Shown here piece by piece: positions 1 to 16,212 of a DNA stretch of 16,297 nt. How positions within the stretch are numbered: position 1 is the stretch's first letter; each line of letters opens with the position of its first letter. A model generated the notes under the pieces. That model made no database searches, was not told the DNA's origin, and saw only the letters and a list, made by a program, of their open reading frames with translations. The position numbers and the translations under genes are program-made. Source of the stretch: a virus (lineage: Duplodnaviria; Heunggongvirae; Uroviricota; Caudoviricetes); IMG/VR virus record IMGVR_UViG_3300029033_000070, positions 1 to 16,297 of that record; one strand, written 5' to 3'.

Positions 1-55
1 TTATGAATTCTGGTTAAAATCCATTCGATTATAAAAATGTATATCTCATGCTGTT

Positions 56-81
56 GCCCGAACCCACTCGGGCTTTTTTTT
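56..81 (+). terminator. Intrinsic terminator for a plus-strand transcript entering from the left
   Basis: Hairpin gcccga-acccac-tcgggc (56-73) followed by an 8-T run (74-81) on the + strand. It is convergent with the minus-strand terminator at 86-111. Confidence 0.5.
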
Positions 82-85
82 GCCC

Positions 86-262
86 ACAAGAAAGCCCCTC
101 CGGAGAGGGGCTAAAGCCGCGTATCTGTATCATCATGCACATGGTGCCGGGTGCCTCCCGGTGAGTTCAGCCCGGTGCCACTAAACCCGCGTCATTCTCG
201 TTTTGATAATCAGAGATTATACCGTCACCAGTCGCCCCTCCGCTCAGGGGGATTCACCATGC
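86..262 (-). ncRNA. Structured RNA-like element, copy 1 (candidate ~170-nt sRNA with its own intrinsic terminator)
   Basis: On the minus strand: 5' gcatggtg ... hairpin cccct-gagcgg-agggg ... hairpin ccggg-aggca-cccgg ... caccatg, then terminator gcccctc-tccg-gaggggc + TTTCTT (+ coords 88-111). Blocks are conserved with copy 2 while linkers differ. An extended -10-like TGtTAAAAA lies just upstream (+ 269-277). Short ORFs in the two copies are not conserved. Exact ends not determined. Confidence 0.4.
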
Positions 263-355
263 GAAATTTTTTTAACAAATGCCCAGTCTGACAGGCAACT
301 GTCAACTTACTGAATTGTGAGCAACATAGCATTTAACGGGGAACCTGTTTTCTGC

Positions 356-385
356 AGTAAAAAGGCCCACCGGAGCGGATGGGCC
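356..385 (-). terminator. Intrinsic terminator (minus strand) in the spacer between the two RNA-like elements
   Basis: ggccca-10 nt loop-tgggcc hairpin (364-385) followed on the minus strand by TTTTTAC (A-run 357-363 on +). Confidence 0.5.
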
Positions 386-573
386 TGGAAGGATAGCGGT
401 CATGTGATGCCGGTTTCCCGGTAACTCAGCACCGGTATCTGAGTCAACGTTTTCTCTACTGGGTCATTTCCGATACGCCCTGCCTGCTGACAGGCTTTCA
501 TCACATCTGAAAATATAGCACCCTGACTGATACTGTAGTACCCAAGGTTCCAGAAACTGTGATGTATCCGGCA

Positions 574-745
574 CAGAAAAGCCCCTCCGGAGAGGGGCTG
601 GAGAGTGGCGCTATGTGCCATTGCATGGTGCCGGGTGCCTCCCGGTGAGTTCAGTATCAGCACCTGAACCCGCACAGAAAGGATAAGGGTCGGTGACAAA
701 ACACCAGTTGCTGATTGCCCCTCCGCACAGGGGGATTCACCATGC
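574..745 (-). ncRNA. Structured RNA-like element, copy 2 (diverged paralogue of 86-262)
   Basis: Same block architecture as copy 1: closing helix catggtg/caccatg (+ 738-745 and near 620), hairpin cccct-gtgcgg-agggg, hairpin ccggg-aggca-cccgg, terminator gcccctc-tccg-gaggggc + TTTTCT (+ 575-598). Upstream TGtTAAAAG and TTGACT motifs at the same spacing as in copy 1. Confidence 0.4.
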
Positions 746-913
746 CAGTTTCTTTTAACAAACTCCCCGCAAACCAGACAACAGTCAACCGCCTGAATTG
801 TGAGGTATTTAAAAATTTCAACGGGTAACTGATACCCTGCTAATCGCCTGATGCTTTCTTTTTCAGCAACGGGAAAGCAACAACCACCACACCCACCAGC
901 CGCCCATTTACCA

Positions 914-942
914 CAAATAAAAAAGCCTTCACTGCGGAAGGC
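914..942 (-). terminator. Intrinsic terminator (minus strand) at the 3' end of the 65-aa ORF
   Basis: gccttc-actgcg-gaaggc hairpin (925-942); on the minus strand it is followed by TTTTTTATTTG (A-run 914-924 on +). The ORF stop codon lies inside the hairpin. Confidence 0.55.
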
Positions 943-1126
943 GTCTGTAACAACCGAACTGATAGTCTGCCAGACCCGCCATAACCAGCTGGGTCAGTAT
1001 TAACTGGCAGCGTTCGCGTGAAAGGTAAGTATTCTGCGCAATCTCCCCGACTGTCGCCGGGTAGGTGACGCTTAATTCATTAAACACCACTCTGGCGGTT
1101 TCTGTCATATCCTGCTGTTTTAGCAT
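929..1126 (-). CDS. Hypothetical small protein (65 aa from internal ATG), possible winged-helix/HTH fold
   Basis: ORF track 929..1216 starts at a GTG; the internal ATG at 1126 has an AAGGGA ~9 nt upstream. Translation MLKQQDMTETARVVFNELSVTYPATVGEIAQNTYLSRERCQLILTQLVMAGL... looks like an HTH but is not assigned to a family. Sits between two intrinsic terminators downstream of Q. Confidence 0.3.
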   Translation of the reverse strand: MLKQQDMTETARVVFNELSVTYPATVGEIAQNTYLSRERCQLILTQLVMAGLADYQFGCYRRLPQ

Positions 1127-1243
1127 GTCTTTTTCCCTTTTCCGGTTAACGTGACATACCAATAACTCTTGTCTAAAAAGCCAGCAAGCTGAAAGACAGG
1201 TATTCACCACCAGCACGTTTACTGTACTGATGCGATTTCAGTC

Positions 1244-1270
1244 ATAAAAAACCCGCCAGGCGGCGGGTTT
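1244..1270 (-). terminator. Intrinsic terminator immediately downstream of Q (possible tR'-like site)
   Basis: cccgcc-aggc-ggcggg hairpin (1252-1267) with a 6-T run after it on the minus strand (A-run 1246-1251 on +); only TTT follows on the + strand, so it is mainly a minus-strand terminator. Lies ~60-80 nt after the Q stop. Confidence 0.6.
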
Positions 1271-1327
1271 AAGTTGTGTGGCGTAGTAACCACTCTTAAC
1301 ATACTGACATACTTTTTGCGGACCGCG

Positions 1328-1720
1328 CTAATCATTTTTTACTTTTTTGGGCAGCCAGTCGTCCATCTCCAGCCTTACACCCAGCATCGACAGACATCCG
1401 TCAATAAATCCTTCAGCAATCTGCATCTCAATTCGTATTGCCTTTTCGCTCTTCTTTCTTGTTCTGGCAATCTGCCTTTTTGATATGCGCAGCAGATAAT
1501 GAGCTACCAGCAGCGAATACTCGTCCGGTTTTTTCTTCTTCAGGCGCGTAAGGCAGTTTTCGATGATAAGGCCGTCATCATCGCTGCAGGCCGGGCGAGG
1601 TTTAGCGGTGGATGGTAAAAGGCCTTTAAATCCAGCAGCTATCGGAGAATAGTCCACCCCGGCGTTACCACTTGCCGCCCATGCCCCCCAGCGTTCGAGA
1701 ACCATCTGAATATCACGCAT
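1328..1720 (-). CDS. Late-gene antitermination protein Q (phage 82/21/QuuD-like family)
   Basis: Translation MRDIQMVLERWGAWAA...LLVAHYLLRISKRQIARTRKKSEKAIRIEMQIAEGFIDGCL matches my memory of Q82-type antiterminators. The ORF-track start at 1735 is a TTG; the ATG at 1720 has GGAG 8 nt upstream, so 1720 is preferred (130 aa). Confidence 0.8.
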   Translation of the reverse strand: MRDIQMVLERWGAWAASGNAGVDYSPIAAGFKGLLPSTAKPRPACSDDDGLIIENCLTRLKKKKPDEYSLLVAHYLLRISKRQIARTRKKSEKAIRIEMQIAEGFIDGCLSMLGVRLEMDDWLPKKVKND

Positions 1721-1737
1721 CAACTTTCTCCACAAAA

Positions 1738-2727
1738 TCAGGACAGCACACCAATCGCCAGCGCGCGATCGATAAAACGAAATATCAGCTCCAGCTGGGA
1801 GCCATACTTCTCTTCAAATGCCACGGTATCCGCATGCAGCTCGTCGTGATGCTTTCTGCACAAAGGCAACACAAAGAGGTCATGCGCTTTTGTACCCATT
1901 CCGCCCTGACCGTGACCTATCAGGTGGTGGGGATCATCAGCAGGTTTTCCACAACATGCGCACGGCTGCGTCTTAACCCAGCGCGTGTACTTTTCATTAA
2001 CCCAGCGGCGACGTTTTGGGCGTAACATAAAAGACTCCGGCGACTCCGGATCCACTTTCAGCGCCAGCACCTTTTTCGCTTTATCCCGGATAATACTGGT
2101 GGCGGGAACCGAAGGCACAAGGTCACTTTCCCGGGTGACAGACGGCACAACCGTCTTCGGTAATCTCAGTACCTTACGGGCTGCACTTTCCGGTAAGGCA
2201 TCCGCCAGGTCATTACGAACCAGCCACCAGCACAGTTCCGGCATTGTCACAACGTGACTGTCATCAAAACCAAGATCACGGCGCACAACAGACAACACCC
2301 AGCGGGCACAGTTATCCGTTGCCATTGATTCCAGCCGTTCCGTGAACTGGTCACGGAGGAGATTGTCACAGTGCCAGCACAGACGGATTGCGCCTGGCGC
2401 GTGCCGCATTGTGGTCATGTTCTCGCTGTGCCAGTCGGAATGAGGCCACTGACAGCCCTTTTCACGAAGTAACCAGCTCTCAAGGCATTCCACGCCACCA
2501 GCACGACGGATCACCGCCTCATTGCGGAACACGGCCCGAACGGCAGGATCATCCGCCAGCGGTTGTGATGCCGCCGGAACGGCACCACTGGCGAAAGATG
2601 AATAACGCTCCGGCTCAGGCTCCAGCAGGACACGCCCCTGCATAAACAGGGGCATCAGCTCTGAACCTGGCCTGAACAATACGATCCCCATACGCGGGGC
2701 AATTTCAGGGGTCAGTAGTGCTCTCAA
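1738..2727 (-). CDS. DUF968-family prophage protein (YdfU-like) with C-terminal Cys/His HNH-like motif
   Basis: 329-aa ORF; C-terminal segment PCACCGKPADDPHHLIGHGQGGMGTKAHDLFVLPLCRKHHDELH resembles the zinc-binding/HNH-like region of DUF968 proteins. Start is a TTG at 2727 with GAGG 6 nt upstream (an ATG lies 13 codons in). Family call from memory. Confidence 0.55.
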   Translation of the reverse strand: MRALLTPEIAPRMGIVLFRPGSELMPLFMQGRVLLEPEPERYSSFASGAVPAASQPLADDPAVRAVFRNEAVIRRAGGVECLESWLLREKGCQWPHSDWHSENMTTMRHAPGAIRLCWHCDNLLRDQFTERLESMATDNCARWVLSVVRRDLGFDDSHVVTMPELCWWLVRNDLADALPESAARKVLRLPKTVVPSVTRESDLVPSVPATSIIRDKAKKVLALKVDPESPESFMLRPKRRRWVNEKYTRWVKTQPCACCGKPADDPHHLIGHGQGGMGTKAHDLFVLPLCRKHHDELHADTVAFEEKYGSQLELIFRFIDRALAIGVLS

Positions 2728-4245: not shown

Positions 4246-4641
4246 TTACCGAGTTGCTAATTTGCAACTCGCTTTTTCGTACTTACTGATAGTGATCTCG
4301 ACCTTCCCTTCCGGGATAACCGGTCCCCACTCCACCAGCATTCTTTTCACCTGGCTGTCGTCTTCCCACACACCCGCGTGGGTCAGGGCGTCAAACAGCG
4401 CCTTGTTATAGTTGTCCAGATCGCGGATCCGGTTATCCGGAGGAAACAACACGATCTCCACTGAAGCAGGTGCCGACGTTGGTTTCGGCAGACGACGTAA
4501 CTGCTCAACTATTGCTGCACACGCCGCGCTCTGGAATTTTCGCCCCGCCGCGCTTATCAGGCTCTTACCAGCAAACGCCCCTTTGTTAGGGTGTCGCCAG
4601 TACGTGTTCACGCTGGGCGGAAAAGGCAGTATTAGCTTCAT
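4246..4641 (-). CDS. rusA: Holliday junction resolvase RusA
   Basis: 131-aa translation carries the RusA-family DLDN/DD signature (DNRIRDLDNYNKALFDALTHAGVWEDDSQV). ATGA overlap with the upstream gene. Confidence 0.85.
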   Translation of the reverse strand: MKLILPFPPSVNTYWRHPNKGAFAGKSLISAAGRKFQSAACAAIVEQLRRLPKPTSAPASVEIVLFPPDNRIRDLDNYNKALFDALTHAGVWEDDSQVKRMLVEWGPVIPEGKVEITISKYEKASCKLATR

Positions 4642-4964
4642 ACTTTCAGGCCCCTCTCATGTAACCAGTGGGTTGCACGCAGCCTTGCGTTTTCCTCACC
4701 GGCAAGCAGTGCGCGGATAATCCCGACCGCCTCGCTGTCGTCGTCCTTCATCGCAGTATGAAGCGTTATCCCCCGGGCCACGCCACGCTTTATCGTGATG
4801 ACGCCTTTTTTCTCCAGTGCGCGAAGATGCTCCACCGCTGCATTCACCGAACGGTATCCCAGCATGGTTGCCACCTCCTGATTGGTTGGCGGGAAGCCAC
4901 GTTCTTTCTGATAAGAAATCAGCATATCCAGCACCTGCTGCTGGCATTGAGTTAATGTCGTCAT
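4638..4964 (-). CDS. LexA DNA-binding-domain-only protein (no S24 peptidase domain)
   Basis: MTTLTQCQQQVLDMLISYQKERGFPPTNQEVATMLGYRSVNAAVEHLRALEKKGVITIKRGVARGITL aligns along its length with the LexA N-terminal winged helix (LTxRQQEVxDxIxxxxxxxGxPPTxxEIAxxLGFRSPNAAEEHLKALxRKGVIEI...RGIRL). Only ~35 residues follow and they lack the Ser/Lys protease motifs. ATGA overlaps at both ends. Confidence 0.8.
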   Translation of the reverse strand: MTTLTQCQQQVLDMLISYQKERGFPPTNQEVATMLGYRSVNAAVEHLRALEKKGVITIKRGVARGITLHTAMKDDDSEAVGIIRALLAGEENARLRATHWLHERGLKV

Positions 4965-5614
4965 GCCGCCATCTCCCTGACCAGTTTTTCCGCCTGCTGG
5001 CGAGCCTGCGCCAGAAATGCCTCACCACATGCCTCAAGTTCATCGCGCCCGATGTAGCTGATTGCCGCTCCCTTCCAGGTCTTGTCGAAAACAGCAATAG
5101 CACCAGCGAAGAAAGCACCTGTTGGCACCTGCTTTTCGTCTTTCGGGATAAACCAGGCTGGCAGTTCAAAACCAATACGCCCGCGAATAAAAGCAATATG
5201 ATCTGCATCTTCCGGCCACCACACTTCGCTGGTGGCCGCTTTGATCAGGAAAACATAGCGCCCGCCTTTATCACGCATGGCACTGGCATGCTTCATGATG
5301 TAACGCATGCCGGTGATGTATTGTCCCTCATGCTGACTGGCGCGGCTGTACGGGGGATTACCAAAGGCAGCACCTTTAAGCTCCGCAAGACGTTCTGACC
5401 AGTCATGTGCCAGCGCGTTGTCTTCCGCCGTGTAATACGCGGCACATTTGGCGTTATCACCGTCAGTAAACAGATCCAGAACAAACGGGCCAAACAGGGT
5501 GTTAATTCCCCAGAAAATGTTGTCCGGCGTGCGCCACTGATCGCCCACTTCCTTCAGTTCATGGGCTGGTTTGTTCCGTAGTTCCACCAGCGCCTGGCAA
5601 TATTTATTACTCAT
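4961..5614 (-). CDS. Phage DNA N6-adenine methyltransferase (Dam-type, orphan)
   Basis: Motifs WRTPDNIFWGINTLFGPFVLDLF and FGNPPYS (NPPY catalytic motif). ORF track starts at a GTG (5647); the ATG at 5614 overlaps the upstream stop (TAATG) and has a G-rich SD, so 5614 is preferred. Confidence 0.75.
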   Translation of the reverse strand: MSNKYCQALVELRNKPAHELKEVGDQWRTPDNIFWGINTLFGPFVLDLFTDGDNAKCAAYYTAEDNALAHDWSERLAELKGAAFGNPPYSRASQHEGQYITGMRYIMKHASAMRDKGGRYVFLIKAATSEVWWPEDADHIAFIRGRIGFELPAWFIPKDEKQVPTGAFFAGAIAVFDKTWKGAAISYIGRDELEACGEAFLAQARQQAEKLVREMAA

Positions 5615-6108
5615 TAAGCCCCCACGTAATTCCCTGACAGATACCACTCATCACCCGCTACAGCGCGCTTTCTGCTTTTCCGTAAGCACCGCTCACGACG
5701 CGCCAGAAAATTGTTTCGTTCTGGCTGGGAGTGGCTTTCACGGAATGCCGCCATCCACACGGTTGCAGCACGACGGTATAAGCCCCTGGACTCCAGTTCT
5801 TCCGCCTGGCGGGTCAGGCACAAAATCACCCGGGGATCGTTAGTGCCGACATAGAAATTGCGCACAGGTATGGTTTCAAGAACAGGTTGCAGTTTCTCCT
5901 CCTGCGATATCTCAGCCTGGTGTGGGAAATGTCTGCGTGTTTTCCCTTCACAACAGTGAGCCACACGGCCACTCTGACGTAACTTGCTTGCTGACTGCAG
6001 AACGCACTGTCGTGAGTAACCAGCAAAAGCATCCGCAATGTCACCTGAAGTACACCCCGGATGGGCTTCAATGAATTTCTGTACATCGTTCATCAGACTC
6101 ATGATCAC
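5614..6108 (-). CDS. PerC-like putative transcriptional regulator (YfdN-like)
   Basis: Segment LESRGLYRRAATVWMAAF resembles the PerC-family core motif; the 164-aa length matches my recollection of YfdN. Start is GTG 6108 or ATG 6102, both abutting the O-like gene stop. Confidence 0.45.
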   Translation of the reverse strand: MIMSLMNDVQKFIEAHPGCTSGDIADAFAGYSRQCVLQSASKLRQSGRVAHCCEGKTRRHFPHQAEISQEEKLQPVLETIPVRNFYVGTNDPRVILCLTRQAEELESRGLYRRAATVWMAAFRESHSQPERNNFLARRERCLRKSRKRAVAGDEWYLSGNYVGA

Positions 6109-7384: not shown

Positions 7385-7605
7385 GCCACACCTCCCAGAC
7401 GCTTAAACATTTTTCCGGAGCAAAAGGCTATAAGCGGCATACTGACGCGGTAATTACGGCCCAGCGGTTCACAAATCACCTTCTGACATTCACGGTCAAC
7501 CAGGCTAACACGTAGAACATGCCCTGCAGGCGTGGTGTACCACTGACCAGGACGAGGACAACGGAAAGTCTGATTGGTAAACCGTTTGAAAATATTCCGG
7601 ATCAT
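7381..7605 (-). CDS. Hypothetical small protein (74 aa)
   Basis: ATG at 7605 overlaps the stop of the Rha-domain ORF (ATGA). No family recognised. Confidence 0.4.
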   Translation of the reverse strand: MIRNIFKRFTNQTFRCPRPGQWYTTPAGHVLRVSLVDRECQKVICEPLGRNYRVSMPLIAFCSGKMFKRLGGVA

Positions 7606-8753
7606 TTGCGCCCCCTTACCTCTGAAGGGTTCAGCGACAAATTTATGAGACTGGCCAGTAGCGCCGCGTCGTTGATGCGGTCATACAGACTTACAGCCAG
7701 CGGGGATTCGGCTTTTGCCAACATGGGATAAAGCTGCTGCAGCCAGACCTTGTGGATTACCGACAGGTGGGAGTAAAGCACGCTGGCGTTATCTGCGGCA
7801 TCGCTCAGCGTGGATGGCTTTGAAAGCAGTTTTTCCATCTGGTTAAAGGCATTGATGTATGCCTCTTTGAACCGGGCAGCACGTTTACCCGTGAAACCCA
7901 TAGCAAGAAACGCAAAACCGTCGCGGGTGATTTGGTAACAAGGGAGTTTGCGGCCTGATGCGTCGGTGTATTCACTTAACACAAAATTGTGTTCAGTAAA
8001 TTCAGCGGAACATTCGAGGTTTCTAATTCTATCTAAAACCCGCTCATGCCGTTTAGTAAAGTAATTAGCTACTGCAAGAGATGTGGTGACAACGCGACCA
8101 TTGATAATCGTGATTTCAGGGTGAGATTGGGTTGGGAGAGTAGTCATGGTGACAGCCCCTATGTTGAATTCAATGAACTCACCACCAAGGCTTTCCACGA
8201 CCATATAGGTGGTGAGACGTACAGGGGTGGAAATACCGGTCAACATAGAACCCGGCCCAACCGAAGTTGGCCCTGCACGCCCCACCATAATTTGGGCGTA
8301 ACGATGCTCATGACACGAAAAAACCGCATGAGCGCGGTTGTGCTCTATATTGAATTTCGGGTTTCCACGCCCGGCACCCGCTTTATAAGGTGCCGGAACA
8401 GTGTAACGTCCCGGAATTGCAGAATCAATATGCTGGTGGTCCTTCACACTCAACAAAATCACGCCTGAATTTCCACAAAGGACTAAAGCACTCATGCGGG
8501 TAGTCTTTGCGAAGATAGATAACGCGCTGTGTTTCTGGCTCCCAACGAATAACATGGACATAAAGCCCTCTTCCGTCACGAAACCAGCGGTTAAGTTCCT
8601 GCACAACTCGCCCCCCACAGTCAGGTAAAGTTCTCTGTGGTTACTTACAGCCAGGTGATTTGGTAATCTGCATTCATGCCGTAACAACAGGTGTTCAGCG
8701 ACGCTGACCACCAGCTGTTGCGACAAACGGTTATTTGCCGTTAAACTATTCAT
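7602..8753 (-). CDS. Rha-family phage regulatory protein with ~200-aa N-terminal extension of unknown function
   Basis: Rha signature ITIINGRVVTTSLAVANYFTKRHERVLDRIRNL...YQITRDGFAFLAMGFTGKRAARFKEAYINAFNQME at aa ~210-300. ATG 8753 overlaps the upstream stop (ATGA), supporting the long form; an internal ATG at 8147 with AGGGG upstream would give a conventional ~181-aa Rha protein. Confidence 0.55.
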   Translation of the reverse strand: MNSLTANNRLSQQLVVSVAEHLLLRHECRLPNHLAVSNHRELYLTVGGELCRNLTAGFVTEEGFMSMLFVGSQKHSALSIFAKTTRMSALVLCGNSGVILLSVKDHQHIDSAIPGRYTVPAPYKAGAGRGNPKFNIEHNRAHAVFSCHEHRYAQIMVGRAGPTSVGPGSMLTGISTPVRLTTYMVVESLGGEFIEFNIGAVTMTTLPTQSHPEITIINGRVVTTSLAVANYFTKRHERVLDRIRNLECSAEFTEHNFVLSEYTDASGRKLPCYQITRDGFAFLAMGFTGKRAARFKEAYINAFNQMEKLLSKPSTLSDAADNASVLYSHLSVIHKVWLQQLYPMLAKAESPLAVSLYDRINDAALLASLINLSLNPSEVRGRK

Positions 8754-15841: not shown

Positions 15842-16056
15842 GGTAAAAACGGTTTGCGGTAAAGCGAGAGTTAAGTAGAATTGCTGCGGGTGCTTGAGGC
15901 TGTCTGCCTCGGGCATGCCACCGTAAGGCAGACAGAGAAAAGCCCCAGTTAACATTATGCGTCTTGCAGGACGCTTAACATTAATCTGAGGCCAATTTCA
16001 TGCTAGTCACATGTAGGTTAGCCTCTTACACGCCGAAAGGCAAGGAGAAGCAGGCT

Positions 16057-16212
16057 ATGAAGCAGCAAAAGGCGATGTTAGTCGCCCTGATCGTCATCTG
16101 TATTACCGTCATTGTGACGGCACTGGTAACGAGGAAAGACCTCTGCGAGGTACGAATCCGAACCGGCCAGACGGAGGTCACTGTCTTCACAGCTTACGAA
16201 CCTGAGGAGTAA
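16057..16212 (+). CDS. hokD: Hok-family type I toxin (HokD/RelF-like)
   Basis: MKQQKAMLVALIVICITVIVTALVTRKDLCEVRIRTGQTEVTVFTAYEPEE is near-identical to HokD/RelF as I recall it. AAGGAG 9 nt upstream of ATG 16057; the track ORF from 16000 is an in-frame upstream extension. A 3' hairpin (cccgc-ttcg-gcggg) is cut by the window end. Confidence 0.8.
   Translation: MKQQKAMLVALIVICITVIVTALVTRKDLCEVRIRTGQTEVTVFTAYEPEE

Follow-up and report, generated by a model that had tools for sequence, protein, structure and literature searches.

The 1.2 kb that follows the Q antiterminator gene very probably serves an E. coli lambdoid prophage as its cargo slot (moron site), occupied here by small RNA (sRNA) genes. 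The window (i.e. the whole analysed stretch of 16,297 nt) derives from such a prophage, with late genes on the minus strand. The locus after Q is an ordinary one, and most of its terminators are the ends of known prophage sRNA genes. The families, their folds, the synteny and the unbroken late operon were observed directly, and the locus is made up as follows (Table 1): (i) the Q module comes first on the late strand, with a Q21-family Q gene, the predicted PR′, hairpin 1, a 65-aa open reading frame (ORF) and hairpin 2; (ii) an sRNA array comes after it, with three tandem paralogous STnc100/PasD-type genes that each have a promoter-like element and end in hairpins 3, 4 and 5; and (iii) an AsxR/AgvB-family anti-sRNA gene, with its own predicted promoter and hairpin 6, faces the array on the plus strand.

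Table 1. Features of the locus downstream of Q, ordered along the late (minus) strand; positions are those of the window.
Feature	Position	Strand	Details
Q antiterminator gene, Q21 family	1328..1723	minus	131 aa by RefSeq start; mechanical ORF 1328–1735
Tandem 8-bp direct repeat, AGTATGTC followed by AGTATGTT	1298..1313	minus	Candidate Q-binding element, read from sequence
Predicted PR′ start, A1294 of AGTGGTTAC	1283..1294	minus	By homology to Min27/Sp5
Candidate sigma-dependent pause element TACTAC	1288–1283	minus	Within 1283..1294
Hairpin 1, promoter-proximal terminator hairpin	1245..1270	minus	Stem 1270–1262/1257–1249, AAACCCGCC-GCCU-GGCGGGUUU; U run to 1245; about +25..+50 of PR′ leader; fold dG −15.9 kcal/mol, z −4.4
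Small ORF, 65 aa	929..1126	minus	RefSeq CDS WP_016232130; possibly winged-helix protein
Hairpin 2	914..942	minus	Stem 942–937/930–925; U6 at 924–919; weakest stem, z −1.0
STnc100 copy B	569..781	minus	RF02076 match 774–569, 141.4 bits; fold z −2.6
Copy B predicted promoter	781–752	minus	−35 TTGTCT 781–776; 18-nt spacer; TGtTAAAAG; −10 757–752; start about G745
Hairpin 3	599–580	minus	Tail UUUUCUGUG; ends STnc100 copy B
Middle divergent STnc100-like copy	357..520	minus	RF02076 match 530–357, 30.1 bits, E 2.6e-4
Middle copy predicted extended −10, TGCTATATT	520–512	minus	Start about A506
Hairpin 4	386–363	minus	Tail U5; ends middle STnc100-like copy
STnc100 copy A	82..298	minus	RF02076 match 291–82, 165.5 bits
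Copy A predicted promoter	298–269	minus	−35 TTGCCT 298–293; 18-nt spacer; TGtTAAAAA; −10 274–269; start about G262
Hairpin 5	112–93	minus	Tail UUUCUUGUG; ends STnc100 copy A
Hairpin 6	56–73	plus	U8 at 74–81; ends AsxR/AgvB-family anti-sRNA
AsxR/AgvB-family anti-sRNA gene	15..81	plus	Predicted −10 TAAAAT 15–20; predicted start C26; terminator 56–73 + U8

The initial annotation had listed six hairpins followed by a U run, and all of them were found, displaced by at most 1–2 nt. A terminator-like scan of positions 1–1400 gave nine matches, well above the 1.6 ± 1.2 obtained in dinucleotide shuffles; the nine comprise five distinct sites at the annotated positions, nested repeats of three of these and one extra site at 297–280. 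Hairpin 1 was missed by the simple scan because A-U pairs absorb part of its U run. Hairpins 3 and 5 have short U tracts with interruptions, so that termination and Hfq binding at the STnc100 terminators may be weak. In a 91–94% identical Stx2a phage (Stx2_14040), hairpins 1 and 2 keep their stems and differ in their loops, with four loop changes in hairpin 2. These two hairpins belong to the Q module and the other four to sRNA genes. Of the earlier idea of a tR′-like terminator series, it holds that hairpin 1 lies in the predicted PR′ leader; the idea fails for three of the five minus-strand sites and for the plus-strand site, which end sRNA genes.

A Q gene does lie directly upstream of the terminators, as had been noted. 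Comparison with Q82-type phages had been suggested; the Q product is not of that type and belongs to the Q21 family, i.e. PF06530 (PMC9388147), with a Pfam match of 176 bits and a distant similarity to Q21 in the PDB (6JNX/6P18; E 1.4e-7 over 80 residues). The protein also falls into PHROG 79, is annotated as 'antiterminator Q family protein' and shares 47.7% identity with the 933W/Min27 Q. The target of Q21 is a pair of directly repeated 8-bp subsites that lies within −40 to −1 of PR′21 (10.1101/651190). Just upstream of the homology-based start, the window has a tandem 8-mer (1313–1298; 7/8 match), whose chance of occurring in 60 bp we estimate at ∼0.02. This repeat is identical in Stx2_14040 and overlaps the predicted PR′ −10 region (CAGTAT at 1306–1301 or TATGTT at 1303–1298); judged from its sequence, it may be the Q-binding element. 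The window and the Q21 cassette (Yin, Kaelber, Ebright 2019; 6P18, 6JNX) share PF06530 and detectable Q21 sequence similarity, a direct repeat of two 8-bp units in the (for the window, predicted) promoter region and a terminator downstream, but the similarity of the window Q is distant (E 1e-7, 80 residues) and the candidate pause element is a poor −10 match. TACTAC is without the final T (relatives have TACTTT and TACATT).

A consensus sigma-70 promoter scan of the minus strand of 1–1400 had no match, and the promoters therefore had to be placed by homology. The PR′ region is 77% identical to that of Min27/Sp5 over 57 nt (blastn, E 3e-6). In Min27, the A of AGTGGTTAC (position 1960 of sequence L003) agrees with three published facts on the PR′ start, namely the −10 TATCAT, the distance of 258 nt to the tR′ end and the GU/AUU RNase E site at +173; the Sp5 start was fixed via the 258-nt length and the +173 site. 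A shared PR′ layout was sought in mEp460, PhiR29_1, Lambda_ev058, Klebsiella P7641 and APSE-1 and no general pattern emerged; among the distant PF06530 phages checked, a GAGTGG box is common to APSE-1 and the 933W type only.

The initial annotation had also invoked StxS as a case in which a terminated PR′-tR′ transcript acts as an sRNA, and this precedent is real (PMC7547250). Like the StxS/PR′-tR′ leader (Sy et al. 2020, PMC7547250; cf. lambda 6S RNA), the window has PR′ directly after a related Q and a homologous first ∼56 nt that include the GC-rich hairpin and its U run (+26 to +49 in Min27/Sp5). Unlike it, the window leader enters the 65-aa ORF before a second terminator. A blastn search with Min27 PR′-tR′ found no significant match in the window to the 74-nt StxS_S, which is the functional, regulatory 3′ part of StxS, or to its tR′; only leader nt 1–56 match. 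The 65-aa ORF is conserved beside Q in Stx2a phages and is a member of PHROG 331 (function unknown; E 2.8e-37). The PHROG alignment spans a 95-aa GTG-start form of the ORF, which may reflect DNA-level conservation rather than translation. Searches of the ORF against Pfam and NCBIfam gave only sub-threshold winged-helix matches (TrmB, E 0.012; HTH_Crp_2; DprA_WH). Hairpin 2 closes the ORF, whose TGA stop lies in its loop. Similarity to Stx2a phages ends at about 889, and hairpin 2 is where the mobile Q module stops.

Hairpin 1 could be the true, efficient tR′ of the Q module, giving a ∼50-nt leader RNA, with the ORF and hairpin 2 as an independent moron that has its own promoter; we give this reading somewhat less than an even chance. 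It is favoured by the 9-bp stem plus U6 and by the similarity to 933W-type phages, which covers −9 to +50 and stops right after hairpin 1, indicating that the hairpin travels with Q and PR′. For an independent moron, the Stx2_14040 homologue has TTGACA upstream of the ORF, but this reads TTAGACA in the window and is without a matching −10. Furthermore, the homologous hairpin in Sp5/933W sits inside the 258-nt StxS precursor and is thus not the mapped tR′ there; in Sp5 this 258-nt PR′ transcript was detected, and its 3′ end maps to the second terminator (PMC7547250).

Membership of the STnc100 family was judged by the RF02076 covariance-model gathering score (47 bits), which copies A and B exceed and the middle copy (30.1 bits) does not reach. 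All three copies share a fold in which an 8-bp closing helix that encloses hairpins is followed by a linker and the terminator (z −2.2 to −2.8). The middle copy has the same architecture by independent fold (z −2.8), with four double-sided compensatory pairs in the closing helix; it is conserved from its −10 to its terminator in loci L009 and L010, where the upstream sequence diverges, and both elements are retained at about 81% flank identity. Scaffold segments are 80–96% identical and the insert and linker 19–41% identical. A conserved scaffold with a variable insert and linker suggests diversification rather than decay, and the middle copy appears to work like an STnc100 family member while being a divergent relative. 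It is highly unlikely that only one STnc100 copy is functional and that the others are decaying duplicates from inter-prophage recombination, with relic hairpins. The low score of the middle copy would fit such decay, as would the spread in copy number from 1 to 4 among genomes, a sign that unequal recombination is frequent; however, the full fold kept in every copy, the compensatory changes that preserve the closing helix of the middle copy, its retained −10 and terminator, and the contrast between scaffold and insert/linker identities all argue against it. A tRNA gene as the source of the cloverleaf-like STnc100 core is excluded by a tRNA/tmRNA scan of the window, which found none.

Homologues of these genes have been studied experimentally. 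Copy A is placed with respect to the anti-sRNA just as EcOnc27/STnc100 is in Sakai Sp5; EcOnc27, which overlaps STnc100, is an Hfq-binding RNA (PMC12711010), and Hfq CRAC data cover EcOnc27/sRNA103 (PMC4104026; PMC12711010). PasD is a Northern-validated STnc100 relative recovered in Hfq RIL-seq (PMC8550237; 10.64898/2026.05.13.724894). By analogy with these homologues, the STnc100-type copies may be discrete Hfq-associated transcripts. They share with PasD1/PasD2 of EPEC E2348/69 (Pearl Mizrahi 2021, PMC8550237; Zhu, Shabalina, Storz 2026 preprint) the closing helix GCAUGGUG...CCAUGC, the architecture and a similar promoter, and PasD2 scores 41 bits on RF02076, below threshold like the middle copy. 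By contrast, the seed UGUGAG and the long U-rich linker of PasD1/PasD2 are missing from all three window copies, and BLAST similarity is confined to about 47 nt. The PasD seed is absent from every minus-strand sRNA body in 1–900, and PasD identity was rejected for the middle copy, which has neither the seed nor a BLAST match.

The promoter and 5′ end of copy B were placed from the PasD2 5′ chimera coordinate 741157. The −35 elements of the predicted sRNA promoters are weak. The STnc100 model of Rfam begins 29 nt before the predicted start, which makes the true 5′ ends uncertain. This early model start is one of several observations that would also be expected if the STnc100-type RNAs were not independent genes but 3′-UTR-like products cut from a long late or stx-type transcript, with hairpins that serve mainly as stabilizing 3′ structures and as boundaries for processing; the others are the absence of a canonical promoter from the consensus scan, the co-orientation of the copies with the late operon, and the known maturation of PasA and StxS by cleavage. 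We nevertheless consider processing unlikely: in L009, conservation sets in precisely with the extended −10 of the middle copy and the sequence upstream diverges, the 5′-most PasD2 RIL-seq chimera coordinate is the position predicted from a TTGACT-18-TAAAAA promoter, and homologues are abundant in uninduced cultures (PMC4104026, PMC8550237).

The plus-strand gene scores 63.0 bits on RF02703 (AsxR) at 26–78, exactly at the gathering score of 63, while Sp5 AsxR scores 88 bits. Its predicted −35 (TTGCGC) falls immediately outside the window on the left. Members of the AsxR/AgvB family are RNAs of 51–60 nt in which the 3′ ∼42 nt are conserved and the 5′ 14–18 nt vary, and they converge with another sRNA 3′ of PR′ (Tree et al. 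2014); the gene has this layout, with copy A as its convergent partner. It differs from Sp5 AsxR at two positions in the 3′ 37 nt and at four in the 5′ 16 nt, and the promoter is nearly identical. AgvB, the GcvB antagonist, was rejected as its identity; the RF02702 score (43.4 bits) is below 56, and the CA-rich GcvB-target mimic segment ACAACAC is deleted in the alignment. In AsxR proper, an FnrS antagonist, the 5′ region is complementary to the FnrS terminator loop; the window copy has the change U8A within the UUAUUAAA stretch, which we infer to pair with that loop (UUUGAUGA). RNAduplex gave −7.6 kcal/mol for the 5′ end against FnrS versus −10.4 kcal/mol for AsxR, and neither value beats shuffled controls, published AsxR included.

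The moron site of Sp3, 4, 5, 9, 10, 11, 15 and 17 holds convergent sRNA pairs 3′ of PR′, an arrangement that Tree et al. 2014 (PMC4104026) describe as conserved in the slot after PR′. In Sakai Sp5, STnc100 (208 bits) and AsxR (88 bits) converge 1 nt apart, 75 nt after stx2B. The Sp5 EcOnc27 (STnc100)/EcOnc02 (AsxR) pair resembles that of the window in its two Rfam families, convergent abutting layout (gap 1–3 nt), position between Q/PR′ and the nanS-p esterase, anti-sRNA promoter and extra late-strand hairpin before the esterase. Unlike Sp5, the window is without stx2AB, tRNAs and methylase upstream, has three tandem STnc100-type copies instead of one, differs in the anti-sRNA 5′ region (4/16 nt, including U8A) and has a Q that is just 48% identical. 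An Stx2a phage has this Q module too, with methylase, tRNAs, stx2AB, STnc100 and esterase after it; the same slot holds stx in Shiga-toxin phages. Among 5426 complete E. coli genomes, 352 contain the array (≥80% present), and arrays of three and four copies exist in other genomes. In RefSeq, the sRNAs of this locus are unannotated or covered by pseudo-CDS.

The convergent pair had been taken as a break in the late module and a possible prophage boundary, with a leftward extension as the check. In 100%-identical genomes the left flank carries, on the same strand, nanS-p esterase, DUF1378, DUF826, holin, lysozyme, Rz and terminase; the lysis genes (holin, lysozyme, Rz) do follow, and neither a break nor a boundary can be upheld. 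That a tR′-like series gates a cargo island, with the convergent pair at the end of the late module or of the prophage, is very improbable, even if Q lies directly upstream, hairpin 1 falls within the predicted PR′ leader and the terminator density is real. Against it, four of the six hairpins belong to Rfam-recognized or Rfam-like sRNA genes, esterase, lysis genes and terminase continue leftwards, and the intact Sp5 late region contains the same pair. The term 'cargo island' is close to the truth, but gating by Q is unlikely: the sRNA genes have their own promoter-like elements and homologues are expressed in lysogens. By analogy, the four sRNA genes are probably expressed in lysogens and not Q-gated.

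Where transcription starts, how efficiently it terminates, which RNAs bind Hfq and what they target are predictions throughout the locus. In a lysogen, the four sRNA genes would be transcribed independently, the sRNAs would probably act via Hfq on mRNAs and sRNAs of both host and islands, and PR′ transcripts would end at hairpin 1 or hairpin 2. Upon induction, Q would load onto RNA polymerase at PR′. Modified polymerase must cross all these terminators to reach the late genes, as the initial annotation had recognized, and would pass every late-strand terminator, among them a sixth that sits immediately beyond the left end of the window; the nanS-p esterase, lysis cassette and structural genes would then be expressed.

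A more far-reaching joint reading is speculative and, taken as a whole, rather unlikely: that the tandem STnc100 genes are a diversifying regulatory cassette with an unrecognized third subfamily, an antisense switch and an overlooked first terminator. If true, (i) hypervariable single-stranded segments on a conserved scaffold would let each copy or prophage address different targets; (ii) the sub-threshold middle paralogue would represent a third subfamily beside STnc100 and PasD; (iii) Q-driven read-through of the array would make RNA antisense to the anti-sRNA, which could switch off host sRNA control at the lysogeny–lysis transition; and (iv) the hairpin conserved at +25 to +50 in PR′ leaders of the Q21/Q933 type would act as a first terminator that had gone unnoticed, with a ∼50-nt RNA as its product.

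In brief, the importance of the locus lies mainly in annotation: a dense run of terminators after Q usually marks prophage sRNA genes in the stx slot and not a regulatory anomaly. It is mildly useful to know that up to four STnc100-type genes stand in tandem in Stx-less relatives of Stx2a phages and that one conserved paralogue scores under the Rfam threshold. Should the copies have different functions, E. coli strains could differ in host and virulence gene expression according to copy number and variant content, a possibility already raised for HUS-linked EcOnc27 variants (PMC12711010).

Terminator-like hairpins are unusually dense downstream of Q: a simple scan gives nine matches in window 1-1400, against 1.6 +/- 1.2 in dinucleotide shuffles. 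All six hairpin-plus-U-run sites claimed by the initial annotation are found at window 56-1270. The simple scan overlooks hairpin 1 solely because three A-U pairs take up part of its U run; folded by itself, this hairpin has -15.9 kcal/mol (z -4.4). The nature of hairpins 3-6 differs from that first proposed, in that they end small-RNA genes. Matches to the STnc100 family, two full-length and one STnc100-like, show that three sRNA genes arranged in tandem terminate at hairpins 3, 4 and 5, and the AsxR match assigns hairpin 6 to the end of a plus-strand anti-sRNA, which also matches AgvB below the Rfam threshold in a relaxed search.

Features between the late gene DUF968 and the left end of the window (L001, flank locus from an identical E. 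coli genome)
Feature	Position	Strand	Details
DUF968 gene	1738-2727	minus	late gene, precedes Q
Q gene	1328-1723	minus	after DUF968
Hairpin 1	stem 1270-1262/1257-1249	minus	U run to 1245
Hairpin 2	stem 942-937/930-925	minus	U6 at 924-919
STnc100 (RF02076), full-length (copy B)	774-569	minus	Rfam, 141 bits
Hairpin 3	stem 599-580	minus	tail UUUUCUGUG
Third STnc100-like match (middle copy)	530-357	minus	Rfam, relaxed threshold, 30 bits, E 2.6e-4
Hairpin 4	stem 386-363	minus	tail U5
STnc100 (RF02076), full-length (copy A)	291-82	minus	Rfam, 165 bits
Hairpin 5	stem 112-93	minus	tail UUUCUUGUG
Hairpin 6	stem 56-73	plus	tail U8
AsxR anti-sRNA (RF02703)	26-78	plus	Rfam, 63.0 bits vs gathering score 63
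Anti-sRNA promoter	-10 at 15-20, start C26	plus	-35 TTGCGC just left of window; -10 TAAAAT
Sixth late-strand terminator-like hairpin	L001 8975-9000	late strand	GGCUGCGCAACUGCGCGGCC + U5; just left of window position 1

The convergent hairpins had been read as a possible prophage boundary or a Q-gated cargo island. Window 1-1800 is 100% identical to chromosomal prophages in E. coli CP55_Sichuan and JNEC-KY203, and the leftward extension proposed earlier, run in the identical genome, leads on the same strand into genes for a SASA/nanS-p sialate esterase, DUF1378, DUF826, class II holin, YdfR and lysozyme, and then Rz, Rha, HNH and terminase subunits. Because esterase, lysis and terminase genes thus continue without interruption, the late module is continuous and the boundary reading is discarded; the locus is a slot separating Q from the lysis genes. 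The cargo part of that reading holds. In an Stx2a phage (Stx2_14040) with a 91-94% identical Q module the same slot carries a methylase, three tRNAs, stx2AB and one STnc100 copy, followed by the same esterase. The sixth late-strand hairpin, similar to the PasD2 terminator, separates the anti-sRNA gene from the 5' UTR of the esterase, has a counterpart in Sakai Sp5 (L006 3008-3035), and contains the anti-sRNA promoter -35 within its stem.

The convergent terminator pair is an already published, conserved feature of lambdoid prophages. In Sp5, the STnc100 and AsxR families converge with a 1-nt gap, 75 nt past stx2B. Tree et al. 2014 described convergent sRNA genes (EcOnc02, i.e. AsxR, and EcOnc27) at the moron site that follows PR', the promoter subject to Q antitermination, an arrangement reported in Sp3, 4, 5, 9, 10, 11, 15 and 17 (PMC4104026); EcOnc27 binds Hfq and overlaps STnc100 (PMC12711010). 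RefSeq annotates none of the four sRNA genes at our locus, and its pseudo-CDS ('internal stop; incomplete') at window 615-755 (+), L001 9615-9755, which covers copy B, is an annotation artefact on non-coding RNA.

Q matches Pfam PF06530 (176 bits) and PDB Q21 (E 1.4e-7); as PF06530 is the Q21 family (PMC9388147), Q is not of the Q82 type that had been suggested. It shares 48% identity with Q of 933W, Min27 and Sp5, so homology to these phages can be used to locate PR'. Published Stx-phage data give a -10 TATCAT, a 258-nt transcript to the tR' U run and an RNase E cut GU|AUU at +173 (PMC7547250), and in Min27 no start other than the A of AGTGGTTAC (L003 1960) is consistent with all three. Positions -9 to +50 of the Min27 leader align with the window at 77% identity over 57 nt (E 3e-6), which puts the PR' start of the window at ~1294. 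Just upstream, at 1313-1298, lies a tandem 8-bp direct repeat (AGTATGTC and AGTATGTT, perfect at 7/8 positions). It is a candidate Q-binding element because Q21 binds two directly repeated 8-bp subsites, inside -40..-1 of its promoter (10.1101/651190).

Hairpin 1 had been considered tR'-like. It does occupy +25..+50 of the predicted PR' leader, but its Sp5 homolog is located within the 258-nt StxS precursor and is therefore not the mapped tR'; we think that hairpin 1 stops a fraction of PR' transcripts. Similarity stops right behind it, so it moves as a unit with Q and PR'. A blastn search with the Min27 PR'-tR' region found no homolog here of the regulatory 74-nt StxS part. Hairpin 2 follows a 65-aa ORF (PHROG 331, weak winged-helix matches) whose stop codon is within the hairpin loop. 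Both hairpins retain their stems in the Stx2a phage with changed loops, and similarity to Stx2a phages stops ~30 bp downstream of hairpin 2. A minus-strand frame at window ~840-914, ending in LVGVVVVAFPLLKKKASGD and a stop, is similar to the C-terminus of DUF3927 proteins. In other prophages, DUF3927 lies ahead of the sRNA array, and the frame here is probably a remnant at the recombination joint of Q module and array.

Folded separately, all three STnc100-type copies have an 8-bp closing helix around 3-4 hairpins, a single-stranded linker and a terminator (z -2.2 to -2.8). The middle copy retains this helix via four double-sided compensatory changes (AUGUGAUG/CAUCACAU vs GCAUGGUG/CACCAUGY). 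In a genome with ~81% identical flanks, its conservation spans the extended -10 (TGCTATATT) to the terminator while the upstream region has diverged; there, the copy shows one more compensatory pair and a rearranged yet intact terminator. From these sequence patterns, we read the middle copy as a functional, divergent paralog rather than a relic. Identity between copies is 80-96% in the scaffold and only 19-41% in the internal insert and pre-terminator linker, a pattern expected if the single-stranded parts hold differing target specificities.

PasD2 of EPEC, a Northern-validated, Hfq RIL-seq sRNA tied to STnc100 by others (PMC8550237; 10.64898/2026.05.13.724894), has the same closing helix and reaches 41 bits on the STnc100 covariance model. 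None of the three window copies carries the PasD seed UGUGAG, ruling out PasD identity for any of them. The 5'-most PasD2 chimera coordinate in RIL-seq (741157) is the G directly before CAUGG, downstream of TTGACT-18-TAAAAA. Homologous elements in the window copies (-35 TTGYCT, 18-nt spacer, TGTTAAAAR) predict starts near 745 and 262, and a start near 506 is expected for the middle copy. A consensus promoter scan found no promoter for these copies, and the Rfam STnc100 model begins 29 nt upstream of the predicted start. Variants linked to HUS have been reported +90 and +103 past stx2B (PMC12711010). In approximate numbering they fall at ~L006 2737-2751 in Sp5 (window ~276-262), on or beside the predicted extended -10 and start of STnc100, and an effect on sRNA expression would fit. 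A conserved CUCACAAUUCAG box ~50 nt upstream of both strong copies (window 310-321 and 793-804, minus strand) includes the PasD target motif CUCACA, probably by coincidence because Sp5 carries GUCACAAUUCAG there.

The array is common: of 5426 complete E. coli genomes, 352 contain at least 80% of window 20-880, and tandem arrays of three or four copies occur in other genomes of the species. Among prophage loci, L011 carries four tandem copies (1368-2347); L010 has the same three-copy array (1520-2197) right behind methylase and tRNAs, without stx; and in L009 the array (1495-2152) follows a different Q family, tRNA and DUF3927, with iraM downstream. The anti-sRNA terminator motif is absent in L010 and L011, so array and anti-sRNA are separable modules.

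Compared with Sp5 AsxR, the anti-sRNA promoter and 3' 37 nt are nearly identical, whereas four differences lie within the 5' 16 nt, fitting the described conserved 3' and variable 5' parts of the family (PMC4104026). Alignment to the AgvB model shows that the GcvB-mimic segment is missing, and duplex energies with FnrS did not separate even published AsxR from shuffled controls. By sequence, the anti-sRNA is a 5' variant of the AsxR/AgvB family.

Elsewhere in the prophage, Rfam matches to a C4 antisense RNA and to isrK, at 82 and 62 bits, lie in tandem at window 8205-8393 (-), inside the 5' part of an annotated 'Rha family' CDS (7602-8504) whose start is probably over-extended; the pair resembles an immunity module of the P1 c4/ant or Gifsy IsrK type. 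A match to the sok antitoxin RNA (15888-16062, plus strand, 118 bits) overlaps ORF 16000-16212, and the two probably form a type I toxin-antitoxin of the hok/sok kind, similar to hokW-sokW in Sp5. The early region is annotated with genes for a LexA-family protein and a PerC-family transcriptional regulator (4638-4964 and 5614-6108, both minus strand). PerC homologs regulate the LEE of EPEC and EHEC.

In brief, all components belong to described families in a described arrangement; modestly new are only (i) the tandem triplication, in which one conserved paralog scores below threshold, (ii) the variant anti-sRNA 5' end and (iii) the candidate Q-binding repeat. In the lysogen, each of the four sRNA genes would be transcribed from its own promoter, by analogy with EcOnc27, PasD and AsxR, which were found with Hfq in uninduced cultures (PMC4104026, PMC8550237), and PR' transcripts would end at hairpin 1 or 2. 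The read-through of terminators by Q-modified polymerase invoked initially applies here. Upon induction, Q would load at PR', and the modified polymerase would pass all five minus-strand terminators of the window as well as the sixth outside it (L001 9000-8975, also in Sp5) and go on to transcribe the genes for esterase, lysis and structural proteins. RNA made by this read-through would be antisense to the anti-sRNA, so host sRNA control may possibly switch at induction.
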